Made by a program: the position numbers and the translations under genes. A stretch of 64,000 nt of DNA from Candidatus Saccharimonadia bacterium (GTDB taxonomy: Bacteria > Patescibacteriota > Saccharimonadia > UBA4664), in NCBI GenBank assembly GCA_041743505.1, contig JBGTMQ010000015.1:13531-77530 (forward strand). The letters are read 5' to 3'. The notes below the pieces were generated by a model, which saw only the letters and a list, made by a program, of their open reading frames with translations, did not search any database and was not told the origin of the DNA. How positions within the stretch are numbered: position 1 is the first letter of the stretch; each line of letters begins with the position of its first letter. This document shows positions 21,898-61,819 of this stretch, piece after piece.

Positions 21898-22604
21898 TTG
21901 GCTGCTCCCACAAGTTTAATAAACGCAGCCTCAATTGAGGCGGTTTGTGTTCTAACCTGTAGCTCCTTCGGCGTACCCAGGGCCAACAGCCGCCCATCAC
22001 GCAGCAGCATCAGTTGGTCGCAATGGTCAGCTTCATCCATCGCATGGCTCGAAACCAGGATAGTGATGCCGGCCTTCGTCAGCGCCCGGAACTGACCCCA
22101 GAGCTGGGCCCGCAAGATAGGGTCCACCCCAACGGTCGGCTCATCCAGCACCAATAGCTTGGGGTGACCGAGCAAGGCTACAGCCAGCGACGCCCGCGAC
22201 CGCTGGCCGCCGGATAGTTTACTAGCCAGCTGGCCCGCCTGCGCTGTCAGCCCCACATCAGCTAGCACGGCCTCAACCCGCGAGCCAGGCACCCCGGACA
22301 TGGCAGCGAAGTAACGCAGGTTTTCCGCCACCGTTAAGTCACCATACACCGAAGGGGCTTGGGTAACGTAGCCGATTTCCCGGCGAAGCGCAGACGACCC
22401 GGCCGGCTGGCCCAACACCGTCACACTGCCGGGCTTAATGCGCTGCAGCCCCACAATCGCCCGCATCAGCGTGGTTTTGCCCGCGCCGGACGGCCCTAGC
22501 AGTCCGATAACCTGCCCGGTCGGCAGTTCGGCCGTAATATTCTCCAAAATCGGCTGCTTGTCGCGGGCTACTGACAGCGAATTAAGCTTAATGGCCGCAT
22601 TCAT
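21894..22604 (-). CDS. ABC transporter ATP-binding protein
   Basis: Walker A GPSGAGKTT, signature LSGGQRSR, Walker B LLVLDEPT. Confidence 0.9.
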   Translation of the reverse strand: MNAAIKLNSLSVARDKQPILENITAELPTGQVIGLLGPSGAGKTTLMRAIVGLQRIKPGSVTVLGQPAGSSALRREIGYVTQAPSVYGDLTVAENLRYFAAMSGVPGSRVEAVLADVGLTAQAGQLASKLSGGQRSRASLAVALLGHPKLLVLDEPTVGVDPILRAQLWGQFRALTKAGITILVSSHAMDEADHCDQLMLLRDGRLLALGTPKELQVRTQTASIEAAFIKLVGAAK

Positions 22605-37633: not shown

Positions 37634-38665
37634 ATGAAGAAACCAATCCTCGTCACCCTAGCCGCCATCGGCCTGATCGCCGCCGCCATTGGCTTTATTC
37701 AATTCCAGCCGTCCTCATCTCCACAAGCTTCGCCTCAATCCCGGTCCCAGGATGAAGGTTCTGCCCCCTTCCACCCCCTAATGGTCGAAGCCATACAAAA
37801 ACGGCCGTACACGGCCGGCCCCATCACCACCGAGCGGGAAGTCAGCGCATTCACTGGCTACCGTAGCCAGGTAGTATCCTATCGCTCCGACGGCTTCAAA
37901 GTTTACGCCCTCATGAACACACCCACCGACCCCGCACCCACCTCTGGTTGGCCCGTATTAATACTCAGCCATGGCTATATCCAGCCACAGGCCTACCAGA
38001 CCCTCGGCGGTGACTACCAGTATTGGATCGAAGGGCTCACCCGCGCCGGCTTTGTAGTCATCAAGCCCGATTATCGGGGCCATGGCCAGTCCGAAGGCAC
38101 CGCCGAGGGTGGCCACTGGTCGCCAGTCTATACGTATGACGTACTCAACCTCACTGAGTCCCTCAAGCGCCACCCTGGCGTAGACGCCAGAAACATTGGC
38201 CTCATCGGTCACAGCATGGGTGGCAATGTCGTCCTCCGGGCAGTCGTAGCCTCCAAAGACATCAAGGCCTCAGCCATCCTGGCCGGTGTCGTAGCCTCAG
38301 CCCCCGATCTGTACAACACCTGGCGCGGCCGCAACTGGTCTCCGCCACCCGGCGCCCCAACAACCCGCCAGAAAATCGTCGATGCCCTGGGCGAACCCAA
38401 GGCAAATCCCGACTTCTGGCATAAAATCTCCGCCATCAACTACGTCAAAGCCGCCACCGGCCCGGTCCAGATCCATCACGGCACCAACGATGATACCGTT
38501 CCCAAAGCCTACAGCGACAGCCTGCAAACCGCCCTCCAACAAGCCGGCCGCCGGTCCGAATACTTCGTCTACGACGGCGGTGACCACCAGTTCAGCTCCA
38601 CCAGCGACTTGGCCCTCCAGCGCATGATCGCCCTCTTCAATGCCGAGCTAAAATCCGGCAGTTAG
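37634..38665 (+). CDS. Secreted alpha/beta hydrolase (S9 peptidase / dienelactone-hydrolase-like)
   Basis: Signal peptide; GHSMGG nucleophile elbow; leaderless (TATAAT 37621-37626, 7 nt before the ATG). Confidence 0.75.
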   Translation: MKKPILVTLAAIGLIAAAIGFIQFQPSSSPQASPQSRSQDEGSAPFHPLMVEAIQKRPYTAGPITTEREVSAFTGYRSQVVSYRSDGFKVYALMNTPTDPAPTSGWPVLILSHGYIQPQAYQTLGGDYQYWIEGLTRAGFVVIKPDYRGHGQSEGTAEGGHWSPVYTYDVLNLTESLKRHPGVDARNIGLIGHSMGGNVVLRAVVASKDIKASAILAGVVASAPDLYNTWRGRNWSPPPGAPTTRQKIVDALGEPKANPDFWHKISAINYVKAATGPVQIHHGTNDDTVPKAYSDSLQTALQQAGRRSEYFVYDGGDHQFSSTSDLALQRMIALFNAELKSGS

Positions 38666-43622: not shown

Positions 43623-44219
43623 ATGCCAAAGCAAACAGCTTCAAAAATCTATGCCTGGTTCTTAGTCATCGGCGGCACCATTGGACTGGCCGCTTCATTC
43701 GTTATCACTCTCGAAAAACTCAACTTGCTCATAAACCCAAGCTACGTCCCATCGTGCAGCATCAACCCCATCCTCAGTTGCGGGTCTGTTATGAAAACGG
43801 CCCAGGCTTCAGTCTTCGGTTTTCCCAATTCCTGGCTTGGTCTTATAGGGTTTGCTGCTGTGATCGTCGTGGGCGTCAGCCTACTGGCGGGAGCAAATTT
43901 CAAAGCCTGGTATTGGCGGCTCTTCAACATCGGCACCCTCTTTGGGGTCGTTTTTATTCACTGGCTAGCGTTCCAGTCTATCTTTGTCATCCATGCCCTT
44001 TGCCCTTGGTGCATGGTGGTTTGGTCGGTCACGATTCCCATATTCTGGTATACGACACTGCGCAATTTCCAGGCAGGTGTCTGGCCGGCCCCCAGACCGC
44101 TCGCCCGCGCCCTAAACTTCCTGCAAGACTACAAGAACCTTGTTCTGGTTTTGTGGTATTTGGCCATTCTCGGCATCATAATCCACCAATTCTGGTATTA
44201 CTGGCGCACGCTGCTCTAG
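43623..44219 (+). CDS. Vitamin K epoxide reductase (VKOR) family protein
   Basis: Loop Cys pair (SCSINPILSC) and CPWC active site in TM4. Confidence 0.85.
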   Translation: MPKQTASKIYAWFLVIGGTIGLAASFVITLEKLNLLINPSYVPSCSINPILSCGSVMKTAQASVFGFPNSWLGLIGFAAVIVVGVSLLAGANFKAWYWRLFNIGTLFGVVFIHWLAFQSIFVIHALCPWCMVVWSVTIPIFWYTTLRNFQAGVWPAPRPLARALNFLQDYKNLVLVLWYLAILGIIIHQFWYYWRTLL

Positions 44220-44384: not shown

Positions 44385-44459
44385 TGGCTCCGGAGGTCGG
44401 GCTCGAACCGACGACCAATTCGTTAACAGCGAACTGCTCTACCACTGAGCTACTCCGGA
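44385..44459 (-). tRNA. tRNA-Asn (anticodon GTT), CCA encoded
   Basis: Cloverleaf built by hand: acceptor TCCGGAG/CTCCGGA, anticodon loop CTGTTAA, T-loop TTCGAGC, 3' GCCA. Confidence 0.9.
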
Positions 44460-44477
44460 TCATTTTTGTACCAGGCG

Positions 44478-44506
44478 ATTATAGCCAGAGATGGCCGCCC
44501 GGTCAA
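44478..44506 (-). promoter_or_regulatory. tRNA-Asn promoter TTGACC-17-TATAAT
   Basis: Reverse-strand hexamers at 44506-44501 and 44483-44478. Confidence 0.6.
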
Positions 44507-44534
44507 TGGATAATGGAGCTCAAACGGCCCAAAC

Positions 44535-44690
44535 TGGTCAAAAAGGCAGGCTTATGATATAGTCGTAGCATGTTACGCCGAAATAACGTGTTTTATGCCT
44601 GGTTCTTTACGACCCTCTCACGGAGGCAGGCTTAACACGTTCGACCAACAAGTCCCTAGCAGAAGCCTCCTCTAAAGGAGGCATTTTTCG
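44535..44690 (+). promoter_or_regulatory. Leader-peptide transcription attenuator: promoter TGGTCA-17-TGaTATAGT, leaderless 21-codon ORF rich in aromatic codons, alternative 1:2 / 2:3 / 3:4 helices, intrinsic terminator
   Basis: Helix 585-592/634-641 plus 597-601/627-631 (region 1:2). GGAGGC 622-627 can pair with GCCUCC 665-670 (antiterminator). Terminator 665-671/676-682 plus UUUUU. Confidence 0.6.
44570..44635 (+). CDS. Leader peptide MLRRNNVFYAWFFTTLSRRQA
   Basis: ATG at the predicted transcription start (leaderless); FYAWFF aromatic cluster; stop codon overlaps region 2. Confidence 0.5.
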   Translation: MLRRNNVFYAWFFTTLSRRQA

Positions 44691-44706
44691 TTTCTGGAGG
44701 CCAATA

Positions 44707-45189
44707 GTGAGTACTCTTGATGATCTGAAGGCCAGAATCAACCATAACGGCCGGGCTACAACTGCACCGACAACCCAGGCGCCGCCCATGAAGTACTGCC
44801 GCCCACTGTCCGGACGCAGCGATGTCTGGCTCATGCCCTGTCACGAGCAGCCGGCCTGCTCCCCCGACGAGGTCAGCCGGGCTATCACAACCAAGCGCGG
44901 CGCCTCGGTGCTCGTGGTCTGTGCAGCCGGCAGTCATTGGGCCGCAGGACTTAACCGGGCGGCCAAGGATTCCCCGGGCCTTGCGCTGCACACCGTTCAC
45001 GCCGCCGGTCAGCCGGCAAACGACGGCGCCATCACCGTCACCGAGGACCAGATTCGCCGAGCCACCCAGGTCAGCCAGACCTCCGGTATCTCGCCAGGAC
45101 GCACCAATGCAATGCTCGTTGCGGCCCTCCTGGGACCTCTGGAGACCCTCACCTGGCAGCGCACGTCCATCGTGCTCATCCTCGGGTAA
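44707..45189 (+). CDS. Hypothetical protein regulated by the attenuator
   Basis: GTG start with GGAGG SD 6 nt upstream; strong C bias at codon third positions supports this frame. The overlapping frames (44822-45211, 44656-45000) are P/S/R-rich shadows. Confidence 0.45.
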   Translation: MSTLDDLKARINHNGRATTAPTTQAPPMKYCRPLSGRSDVWLMPCHEQPACSPDEVSRAITTKRGASVLVVCAAGSHWAAGLNRAAKDSPGLALHTVHAAGQPANDGAITVTEDQIRRATQVSQTSGISPGRTNAMLVAALLGPLETLTWQRTSIVLILG

Positions 45190-45218: not shown

Positions 45219-45266
45219 CGGCCGGCTAATAGGAGACGCCTCTTGTTAGCCGGCCGTTTTACGTTT
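45219..45266. terminator. Bidirectional terminator hairpin
   Basis: cggccggctaa...ttagccggccg 11-bp stem, then TTTTACGTTT. Confidence 0.55.
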
Positions 45267-45462: not shown

Positions 45463-45505
45463 GTAGTAACTTTACACCCTTTGCTATACCGGCTACGATT
45501 CAGAT

Positions 45506-46033
45506 ATGCTAAAGAAACTTCTCATTGCCGCCACCTTACTGCTGACGGCCAGCGGCTTTGTCTTGGCTCATCGTAGCAACCAGGAGGCGGGGAAGCAAGC
45601 AAAAGCTATTTTGGCTGCCGATGTGTCCTCTCAGAACGTTACGCCCCTACTGAATACCTTGCAGGGCTTTGTCGCCGCCCATATGGGCTCCGGCGCCACT
45701 ATCACACTCACGGGCTCGCACGACCGGGCGATGGCGGCGGCAAAGGCTGCCGCTCAGGCCCAAAGCGCCAATTCACAGATTTACGCTCAGGCACAAGCCG
45801 CCTGCGGCGGCAAAAACGATTCTGTCTCAGCCGCCAAGTGCAACCAGGACTTCCTAGCCAAGCACTTGGTCAATGTACCGGTACCCGCTCCGGTGGTTGA
45901 GCCCAAGCTAGCCGATTATCAGCACCAATTCCGGGCGCCCCCATGGACCCCCGACCTGGCTGGAGCATTGTTCTTGGGAGCGGCCGGAGCGCTGGCTATC
46001 TTATTGTTGAGCTTGATTAAGCGGAGGTCATGA
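45506..46033 (+). CDS. Hypothetical secreted protein with C-terminal TM anchor
   Basis: Signal peptide; Ala/Gln-rich; 175 aa. Confidence 0.5.
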   Translation: MLKKLLIAATLLLTASGFVLAHRSNQEAGKQAKAILAADVSSQNVTPLLNTLQGFVAAHMGSGATITLTGSHDRAMAAAKAAAQAQSANSQIYAQAQAACGGKNDSVSAAKCNQDFLAKHLVNVPVPAPVVEPKLADYQHQFRAPPWTPDLAGALFLGAAGALAILLLSLIKRRS

Positions 46034-60389: not shown

Positions 60390-60527
60390 ATATTGGTTTC
60401 GTTAAAATTCTGATAATAACCTTACCCTAAGCGGGCCTATTCCTGCAAATTATTTGCATAAGCAGCCTTAAATGCAAAAAAATCAGTATGCTATCATATA
60501 TAAGTACAAGCTTAACAACTAATTCAA

Positions 60528-60685
60528 ATATCACGAACGCGGCGAGGGACCTAGCCCTGCGACCCGCTAGCAACCCTGGTTTATTTACCAGAAGGTGCTT
60601 CGTCTAGCCCGCCTCAACGGGAGAGATATACCACACTGTTAAGCAGTTTGGCCTTTCTCCTCGTGTACTCGTGAGAAAGGTTTTT
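60528..60685 (+). promoter_or_regulatory. SAM-I riboswitch with terminator/SD-sequestering expression platform
   Basis: P1 AUAUC/GAUAU (60528-60532/60625-60629); GAGGGA, GCCC, GCAACC; P3 CUGG-UUUAUUUA-CCAG; AAGGUGC; P4 CCCG/CGGG. Terminator cctttctc...gagaaagg + TTTTT (60653-60685) contains the metK SD. Confidence 0.75.
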
Positions 60686-61819
60686 ATGTCACAGACCAAA
60701 CTCTTTACCTCAGAATCAGTCGCCGCCGGCCACCCCGATAAAATTTGCGACCAAATCAGCGATGCCATCCTGGACGCCATGCTGGCCCAGGACCCCTACT
60801 CCCACGGCGCCGTGGAAGCGGTAGTTGGCGGAGATCATGTCTTCCTCGTGGGCGAGGTCAACACCAAGGCCAAGGTCGATTTTGCGGAGGTCGCCCGCCA
60901 GGTTATTCGAGGCCTAGGCTACACCGAGCCAAAATGGGGCTTCTCAGACCAGTCAACCATCAAGAGCATCTTGCACCAGCAGTCACCCGAAATCGCCATG
61001 GGTGTCGACGCCGAAGGCGCCGGCGACCAGGGCATGATGTTTGGCTACGCCTGCCGCGAAACCCCCGAGCTAATGCCCCTGCCCATCACGCTGGCCCATC
61101 AGCTCACCCGGAAGCTCGACCAGGTCCGCGAAAACGGCGAATCGTCCTGGCTCCGGCCCGACGGCAAGTCCCAGGTAACCGTGCGCTACGAAAACGATCA
61201 GCCGGTGGCCGTAGAAACCGTCGTTATGGCCGTCGCCCACAGCGAGGATATGTCGGCCGAACAGGTCCGTGACCTCGTCATCGCCAAAGTTATCCGCCCC
61301 GTCCTGGAGCGCTACGGCTACGAGGTCAAAGACGGCCAGATCATCATCAACGGCACCGGCCTGTGGCACATCCCTGGTCCGGAGTCAGACGCCGGCCTGA
61401 CCGGCCGCAAGATCGTTGTGGACGGCTACGGCGGCTATGCCCGGGTCGGCGGCGGCGCCTTCAGTGGCAAGGAGCCCAGCAAAGTTGACCGCTCCGGCGC
61501 CTACGCCGCCCGCTACATCGCCAAAAACATCGTCGCCGCCGGCCTGGCCGACCGCTGCGAAATGGGCCTAGCCTACGTCATCGGCCGCCCGCGCCCCGTC
61601 ATGGAGCAAATCGAAACCTTTGGCACCGCCAAGGCCAGCCAAGACGAGCTCAACAAATTCACCGCCAACCTCATCGACACCTCGGTCACCGGCATCATTA
61701 AAGCCCTCGACCTGCGCCGGCCCATCTACCAAGCCACCGCTGCCTACGGCCACTTCGGCCGCGATGAATTCCCCTGGGAGCAAGTCGTAGAGGCCAAAGT
61801 CCCCGCCGCCAAAAAATGA
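60686..61819 (+). CDS. metK: S-adenosylmethionine synthetase
   Basis: MSQTKLFTSESVAAGHPDKICDQISDA...; start trimmed to ATG 60686. Confidence 0.95.
   Translation: MSQTKLFTSESVAAGHPDKICDQISDAILDAMLAQDPYSHGAVEAVVGGDHVFLVGEVNTKAKVDFAEVARQVIRGLGYTEPKWGFSDQSTIKSILHQQSPEIAMGVDAEGAGDQGMMFGYACRETPELMPLPITLAHQLTRKLDQVRENGESSWLRPDGKSQVTVRYENDQPVAVETVVMAVAHSEDMSAEQVRDLVIAKVIRPVLERYGYEVKDGQIIINGTGLWHIPGPESDAGLTGRKIVVDGYGGYARVGGGAFSGKEPSKVDRSGAYAARYIAKNIVAAGLADRCEMGLAYVIGRPRPVMEQIETFGTAKASQDELNKFTANLIDTSVTGIIKALDLRRPIYQATAAYGHFGRDEFPWEQVVEAKVPAAKK

Follow-up and report, generated by a model that had tools for sequence, protein, structure and literature searches.

The DNA analysed here, called the window below, is a 64,000-nucleotide stretch of contig JBGTMQ010000015.1 (assembly GCA_041743505.1) from a Saccharibacterium (Candidatus Saccharimonadales, in the candidate phyla radiation, CPR), a bacterium of the ultra-small genome type with a GC content of about 55%. 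Positions 44535 to 45189 of its forward strand hold a compact unit in which a promoter abuts a 21-codon open reading frame (ORF), followed by RNA segments able to form alternative helices, an intrinsic terminator and a gene for a protein of 160 amino acids, which we call ORF160. The element that precedes ORF160 is very likely a terminator/antiterminator leader of some kind and, with somewhat less confidence, its sequence is best read as a leaderless leader-peptide transcription attenuator that responds to aromatic amino acids, of the type known from Actinobacteria. All of its parts are present, and they are as follows (positions are those of the window).

44535–44540, plus strand: −35-like hexamer TGGTCA (promoter scan; 9/12 overall match)
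44555–44563, plus strand: extended −10 element TGaTATAGT, with TATAGT at 44558–44563, separated from the −35 hexamer by a 17-nt spacer, and TG at 44555–44556
44570 (ATG) to 44633–44635 (TAA), plus strand: leader ORF, 21 codons, MLRRNNVFYAWFFTTLSRRQA (ORF list)
44591–44608, plus strand: putative regulatory codons 8–13, UUU UAU GCC UGG UUC UUU (FYAWFF; ORF translation)
44585–44606, plus strand: region 1, the 5′ strand of the anti-antiterminator helix 1:2 (minimum free energy, MFE, folds)
44622–44641, plus strand: region 2, which pairs with region 1 or, through 44622–44633, with region 3, and which holds the leader stop codon
44663–44673, plus strand: region 3, AAGCCUCCUCU, serving the antiterminator as its 3′ strand and the terminator as its 5′ arm (constrained folds)
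44665–44693, plus strand: intrinsic terminator, GCCUCCU-CUAA-AGGAGGC followed by AUUUUUCGUUU (terminator scan)
44697–44701, plus strand: Shine-Dalgarno (SD) sequence GGAGG of ORF160, 6 nt before its GTG
44707–45189, plus strand: ORF160, GTG start, 160 amino acids, with one known homologue

The promoter and the abutting ATG lie where the original prediction had placed them, and both the sequence and the ORF list bear out its description of a 21-codon ORF in which five of codons 8 to 13 are aromatic. The predicted transcription start, A44570, is located 6 nt past the −10 hexamer and coincides with the A of the leader AUG. An in-frame TGA at 44555 makes a longer form of the leader ORF impossible, and the sequence upstream of AUG 44570 contains no SD; consequently, the leader ORF could be translated only as a leaderless message. 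The aromatic run is also uncommon, as the local chance of five aromatic codons in six is about 1e-4. The six frames of the 64 kb contain four windows with at least five aromatic codons in six, vs about 1.1 expected in random sequence, and one of the other three is a genuine membrane-protein segment of the VKOR protein encoded upstream. In the approximately 0.97 Mb formed by the window and the fetched loci, no other mini-ORF combines an AUG close to a −10 hexamer with a cluster of aromatic codons and a terminator further on, and no other leaderless mini-ORF attenuators were found in the window or in any fetched locus.

Leaderless starts appear to be frequent in the window. When −10-like hexamers (at least 5/6 match to TATAAT) were counted upstream of its 70 long ORFs, at spacings of up to 40 nt, they peaked 6–7 nt before the first ATG or GTG (seven of the 70, vs 0–2 at any other spacing). 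The genes in this peak have no SD, and include, for instance, those at 37634, 38933 and 45506 on the plus strand and at 22604 and 40814 on the minus strand. The start of p175, a gene downstream of ORF160, has the arrangement TTTACA-17-TACGAT-6 nt-ATG (45471–45508), and its intergenic region, this promoter-ATG arrangement included, is about 93% conserved in L076, a contig that carries the orthologous locus. These observations suggest frequent use of leaderless mRNAs by this bacterium. The TATAGT-6 nt-ATG of the leader therefore fits a start type that the genome appears to use routinely, and leaderless translation of the leader is plausible.

The three helices proposed in the original prediction were all recovered by RNA folding and are mutually exclusive. 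Helix 1:2 (44585–44592/44634–44641 plus 44597–44601/44627–44631) shows perfect pairing at −15.8 kcal/mol, and the unconstrained MFE fold holds it together with the terminator. The latter, predicted at 44665–44690 with its U tract, was also found by the terminator scan; its hairpin (44665–44682) has 7 bp, 5 of them GC, and a tetraloop, with −12.7 kcal/mol. As for the antiterminator, the 6-bp pairing of GGAGGC with GCCUCC that had been described does exist (−9.5 kcal/mol), but a stronger register was found when region 1 was made unavailable. Under this constraint, the MFE fold takes an antiterminator of 11 bp with one bulge, formed by GGAGG-C-AGGCUU (44622–44633) and AAGCCU-CCUCU (44663–44673), and this register occurs in folds of −14.8 to −17.2 kcal/mol, prior to transcription of the terminator 3′ arm (region 4). 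According to these folds, the 11-bp register, rather than the 6-bp one, is most likely the functional antiterminator. Additionally, CCUCU (44614–44618) pairs with GGAGG (44677–44681) in the fold of the stalled state, so that region 4 is sequestered too, while the SD of ORF160 is unsequestered in the folds of both states.

The complementarity behind these helices is non-random. Among 2000 shuffles of positions 44570–44662 that preserved dinucleotides, a 2:3 duplex as strong as the real one appeared in three and a 1:2 duplex as strong in one, and both together in none (0/2000). The three-way competition between helices is, therefore, not a product of chance.

The switch is also position-specific when a ribosome is placed on the leader. 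Base-pair probabilities were obtained from the partition function for the transcript as it is when the polymerase arrives on the U tract, masking the ribosome footprint for each A-site codon. The probability of the terminator is 1.00 with the ribosome absent or initiating and 0.82–1.00 with the A site on codons 2–6. It then falls to 0.001–0.018 with the A site on codons 7–12, and recovers to 0.83–1.00 from codon 13 to the stop codon. Other footprint definitions move the antitermination window by one codon. As low values are confined to codons 7–12, the antiterminating stalls are essentially those at the aromatic codons 8–13. Both arms of the original prediction are thus reproduced by the model: a ribosome stalled on the aromatic codons favours the antiterminator (probability of the terminator ≤0.02), whereas one that reaches the stop favours termination. 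The location of the leader stop codon inside region 2 also matches the classical attenuation model.

A mechanism can be proposed from these elements. Transcription would start at A44570, and a 70S ribosome would translate the 21-codon leader directly. With Phe-, Tyr- and Trp-tRNAs charged, the ribosome would reach the stop codon inside region 2, leaving region 3 free for region 4; if no ribosome were engaged, helix 1:2 would form and region 3 would likewise be free to pair with region 4. In both cases the 3:4 terminator would form and yield a transcript of about 120 nt, ending near 44688–44692. When aromatic aminoacyl-tRNA is scarce, the ribosome would instead stall with its A site in codons 8–12 and cover region 1. 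Region 2 (44622–44633) would then pair with region 3 (44663–44673), the terminator would be blocked, and the polymerase would read into ORF160, which would be translated from its own GGAGG site. ORF160 would, in short, be made when the supply of Phe or Tyr fails.

The same RNA could, in principle, be switched by an agent other than the ribosome, such as a small molecule bound by hairpin 1:2 acting as an aptamer, an RNA-binding protein or an uncharged tRNA, the ORF then being incidental. The three-helix competition is statistically solid whether the leader is translated or not, and that the mini-ORF is translated is itself a prediction. The 57-nt hairpin 44585–44641, with its internal loop and its 15-nt apical loop, could be a small aptamer, and riboswitches are in use in this genome, as shown by the SAM-I aptamer at 60525–60632. 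However, such a switch would require several coincidences to concur: the AUG would have to fall by accident on the very +1 that is predicted, its frame would have to stay open until region 2 and close there, the run of five aromatic codons in six would have to occupy the sole antiterminating stall positions, and the target would have to be poor in Phe and Tyr (see below). Nor does Rfam offer a candidate aptamer. Searched at gathering and at permissive thresholds (E up to 10), the leader matches no curated family above threshold, and RF01859 (Phe_leader) reaches 18.2 bits (E 0.69–3.8), below its 55-bit gathering threshold; the Rfam matches in the window are tRNA-Asn, the distant SAM riboswitch and this sub-threshold Phe_leader. 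A non-ribosomal switch is, consequently, an unlikely explanation of the locus.

Under the attenuator reading, the controlled gene is ORF160, and its description as a GTG-started gene at 44707 with a GGAGG, 160 codons and high GC at the third codon position is confirmed (GC by codon position, 0.65/0.57/0.75). ORF160 has 65% GC in a window with 55%, and its homologue has 61% in a contig with 57%; both proteins are rich in Ala, Thr, Ser and Pro, and the raised GC may stem either from a foreign origin or from this amino-acid composition. ORF160 itself was the sole match among 5.8 billion proteins in a word-indexed search, while phmmer, run exhaustively against 1.84 billion representatives, retrieved one homologue, P0002 (165 amino acids, 35% identity, E 3e-7), and a profile built from the two added no homologue in either a protein search or a metagenome scan. 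We considered that ORF160 could be a mere chance frame within a non-coding RNA of high GC content and rejected this idea, as frame 0 is open in both genomes and the other frames have 3–4 stops. Nucleotide identity between the two genes by codon position is 0.53/0.55/0.43, the position of the start codon is conserved, and the SD is in the same position in both, before an ATG in L076. The comparison of the two genes indicates that ORF160 is a genuine, fast-evolving protein-coding gene.

What connects ORF160 with the amino acids presumably sensed is its composition. The protein contains no Phe and one Tyr in 160 residues, and P0002 one Phe and no Tyr in 165 (binomial P of about 1e-4 for each of them). 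The average content of Phe plus Tyr for the long ORFs of the window is 6.9%, and ORF160 is the lowest of the 70, the next lowest having 2.4%. Amino-acid biosynthetic enzymes tend to have a low content of their own amino acid, a tendency known as low cognate bias. The near absence of Phe and Tyr may be a bias of this sort, as would be expected if ORF160 is induced when Phe or Tyr runs short. This depletion is the only link of ORF160 to the sensed amino acids.

Regarding family, the original statement that ORF160 has no recognizable one holds in that no Pfam or NCBIfam threshold is reached, but a faint, sub-threshold resemblance to pyridoxal-phosphate (PLP) fold-type II enzymes has to be added. 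The Pfam family PF00291 (PALP) aligns with P0002 at 17.6 bits (E 0.0026; profile positions 214–276 of 295), below its 35-bit threshold, and does not match ORF160 itself. The two-protein profile aligns with the C-terminal residues 272–325 of the catabolic threonine dehydratase 2gn0 at E 0.23. In hhalign, E. coli CysK, in a sequence entered by hand, is colinear with it over residues 184–300 (E 0.029, probability of only 1.7%). Weak as they are, the three signals agree with one another and point faintly to the C-terminal third of such enzymes, from which ORF160 possibly derives. Nevertheless, 160 residues are too few to include the N-terminal half of the PALP domain, and ORF160 is therefore not assigned as a member; it is this half that holds the PLP-binding lysine. 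AlphaFold models of ORF160 alone (pLDDT 44) or with its homologue (pLDDT 41) are unusable.

The homologue P0002 is encoded in L076, a 1.6-kb ENA contig (NODE_71023 of sample ERZ25418461) with the same downstream synteny (PGPGW, p175, p202), whose neighbour genes are 63–71% identical to those of the window in protein and about 67% in DNA. The comparison of the two loci shows partial conservation of the unit, at the end of the leader and downstream of ORF160:

44677–44704, plus strand: 28-nt block comprising the terminator 3′ arm, the U tract, the spacer and the SD, 28/28 identical to L076 positions 1–28
45219–45256, plus strand: 17-bp hairpin terminator that ends the single-gene unit, convergent with the PGPGW gene (terminator scan)

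At a background identity of 67%, the chance of 28 identities in 28 positions is about 1e-5. In the downstream hairpin (L076 positions 556–592) it is mainly the stem that is conserved, with one compensatory change from C-G to U-A, which is consistent with a terminator, possibly bidirectional, kept by selection on its structure. Perfect sequence identity in the leader, vs conservation of the stem only downstream, suggests that the former is under an extra constraint. Scans for a conserved 24-nt block, exact or degenerate, gave 0 matches in metagenome contigs and 0 in viral contigs.

More distant relatives lack the unit. Among 73 loci of GTDB genomes examined for VKOR synteny, only one (L037) keeps VKOR together with tRNA-Asn, and it has neither the leader nor ORF160. 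In this locus, a 161-aa gene is inserted between VKOR and tRNA-Asn, the tRNA gene (814–888) is near-identical and conserves its −35 and −10 hexamers, and an OmpR-type two-component system follows; tRNA-Asn therefore marks a synteny break point. On the other side, the loci compared around p175 (L077–L083) keep either PGPGW-p175-p202-RRM (L077 and L078) or p175-p202-RRM, and ORF160 and the leader are absent from them. As the distant relatives are devoid of both, leader and ORF160 come and go as a lineage-specific unit. The same locus is also found in the Logan contigs L001 (SRR28170471) and L002 (SRR28170470), with 251/251 identical positions across 44460–44710, and at least one base difference separates L001 (position 2099) from the window (38082), a Leu/Pro change in a spurious small ORF. 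They come from near-identical strains and are thus uninformative for covariation.

Another possibility is that the leader constitutes a separate gene, for a small RNA of about 120 nt that acts in trans, with ORF160 being expressed by incidental read-through or from another start. A promoter and a terminator spanning about 120 nt are the standard anatomy of small RNA genes, the terminator end is strongly conserved, and RNAs derived from attenuators can act in trans, as is reported for rnTrpL of Sinorhizobium (PMC6614838). However, there is no sign of a separate promoter for ORF160 in the 16-nt gap that follows the terminator, which holds only the SD, and a built-in antiterminator would be needless in a small RNA. 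An action in trans is, moreover, compatible with attenuation rather than exclusive of it. We consider an independent small RNA gene very improbable.

It could also be argued that it is the nascent peptide (…VFYAWFFTTL…) that senses, arresting its own ribosome when a drug or a free metabolite is present, as do the Erm and Cat leaders or TnaC. The RNA geometry would be identical, leaders of this kind also precede single inducible genes, and Saccharibacteria live on antibiotic-producing Actinobacteria. By contrast, ORF160 is unlike any known resistance or catabolic protein, and we recognise no known arrest motif in the peptide. The scarcity of Phe and Tyr that ORF160 shares with P0002, furthermore, would be explained by control through tRNA charging and not by drug sensing, which makes an arrest peptide very improbable. 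Finally, a chance combination of an ordinary 5′ untranslated hairpin, a terminator-like sequence and a fortuitous small ORF is very improbable: although the feature was picked after reading 64 kb, which entails some post-hoc selection, and the leader as a whole folds with a z-score of only −2.5, the joint shuffle result, the 28 identical nucleotides in flanking DNA of about 67% identity and the uniqueness of the combination in the DNA scanned all speak against it.

The computational tests able to contradict the attenuator reading all came out in its favour, and the trp/phe-type leader-peptide attenuator originally predicted is supported by the shuffles, the footprint model, the leaderless geometry, the 28/28 identity and the Phe/Tyr-poor target. 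Several points weigh against it, however. The transcription start is a consensus prediction with a weak −35 hexamer (4/6), runs that mix Phe, Tyr and Trp codons are less common than those of a single amino acid, and the sub-threshold Phe_leader score is carried by the terminator hairpin. Contig L076 begins inside the terminator, so that the part of the leader shared for comparison is only its last 28 nt, and the window and this contig share high conservation in other intergenic control regions too; what the 28/28 identity demonstrates is therefore a function, and not attenuation in particular. With respect to the target, Trp is not depleted in ORF160 (3/160), its high GC (65%) could be partly behind the low Phe and Tyr content, although it explains only part of it, and there is no demonstrable link between ORF160 and aromatic amino-acid metabolism. 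Additionally, the biosynthetic capacity of Saccharibacteria is described as very limited (PMC7427843).

The closest counterparts of the proposed attenuator are found in Actinobacteria. In Streptomyces lividans, trpL1, leuL2 and ilvL encode leaderless leader peptides (TrpL1 being MFAHSTRNWWWTAHPAAH) that are followed by hairpins and a U-rich stretch or Rho-independent terminators, and leader peptides also precede tRNA ligase and transporter genes (PMC8079986). A leaderless leader peptide has likewise been described for ilvB in Corynebacterium diphtheriae (PMC5784534), and the C. glutamicum attenuators of Neshat 2014 (as cited in PMC11802643) can be counted with them. The locus described here resembles these systems in having an AUG without SD, here at the predicted 5′ end, together with clustered regulatory codons, hairpins that compete with one another and an intrinsic terminator of the Rho-independent type. 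The actinobacterial leaders have 12–29 codons, and their targets are often monocistronic and in some cases non-biosynthetic (tRNA ligases, a transporter). The differences lie in the host, a Saccharibacterium, in the mixed Phe/Tyr/Trp run and in the orphan target.

A mixed aromatic run is also present in the AroR leader of C. glutamicum (Phe-Tyr-Phe), in which stalling at the Phe/Tyr codons or limitation of Phe raises the transcription of the downstream operon (PMC11802643). The target of aroR is, however, aroF, which encodes the DAHP synthase of aromatic biosynthesis, whereas the leader studied here adds Trp and precedes an orphan that does not resemble an enzyme. The four-region logic, in which region 1 carries the regulatory codons and translation stops at or within region 2, is that of the E. 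coli pheA and pheST leaders (RF01859) and of the trp attenuator, and the terminator GCCUCC…GGAGGC-UUUUU resembles the RF01859 consensus; by contrast, those leaders are SD-led, and their targets are biosynthetic or synthetase genes. A last comparison can be made with the leaderless polycysteine small ORFs of mycobacteria, the ‘Cys ribulon’, in which a paused ribosome remodels the RNA and induces the next gene (bioRxiv 10.1101/834739). In both cases a leaderless small ORF would be the sensor, and a pause on one class of codons would alter the structure of the RNA downstream. In the Cys ribulon, however, the ribosome-binding site is sequestered and control is translational, while here the competing structure is an intrinsic terminator and the SD is free.

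The unit is flanked by the following features, the 17-bp hairpin terminator that closes it having been listed above:

43623–44219, plus strand: VKOR gene, the upstream neighbour
44385–44459, minus strand: tRNA-Asn gene, with its own strong promoter TTGACC-17-TATAAT (44506..44478)
44535–45189, plus strand: the leader and ORF160 unit, between tRNA-Asn and the 17-bp hairpin terminator
Downstream, in order: the convergent PGPGW gene, p175 and p202 (lineage-specific membrane or secreted proteins) and an RRM protein

The VKOR protein is 63–79% identical to the VKORs of metagenome-assembled genomes of Saccharimonadales. In a comparison that included loci L008–L019, it was about as similar to those of Actinobacteria (53–56% to Lentzea, Streptosporangium and Pseudonocardiales) as to those of many Saccharibacteria (42–55%), and Saccharibacteria may thus have exchanged genes with the Actinobacteria that host them. 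An origin of the unit as an island inserted at tRNA-Asn is unsupported, because the unit is next to the promoter, or 5′, end of this tRNA gene; the only repeat search made for this idea looked for additional copies of the terminator sequence and found none. Elsewhere in the window, the SAM-I riboswitch aptamer (RF00162; plus strand; 53.4 bits, above threshold) lies 5′ of an ORF of 383 amino acids (60671–61819), and a weak terminator-like hairpin is found at 60660–60675. At least one further RNA leader that acts in cis is therefore in use in this Saccharibacterium.

Gene regulation in Saccharibacteria and in other CPR bacteria is almost unexplored, and no report of leader-peptide attenuation in Saccharibacteria was found in the literature searched. 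The mechanism itself is a textbook one, and the value of the finding resides in the organism and the target rather than in the principle. As judged from its sequence, the locus is a probable addition, from a CPR bacterium, to the leaderless leader-peptide attenuators of actinobacterial type. More tentatively, and with some doubt on our part, it may be the first ribosome-mediated, amino-acid-sensing attenuator of the CPR. An epibiont presumed to be auxotrophic for aromatic amino acids would then read the supply of its host through the charging of Phe and Tyr (and Trp) tRNAs, and switch on a lineage-specific, almost Phe/Tyr-free, degenerate fragment of a PLP fold as a dedicated starvation-response factor and not as a biosynthetic enzyme. 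If the switch works as modelled, it would be a compact and experimentally tractable sensor. It would also mean that reduced epibionts monitor aminoacyl-tRNA charging for amino acids presumably derived from their hosts, and it would single out the orphan ORF160 as part of the response to a shortage of aromatic amino acids.

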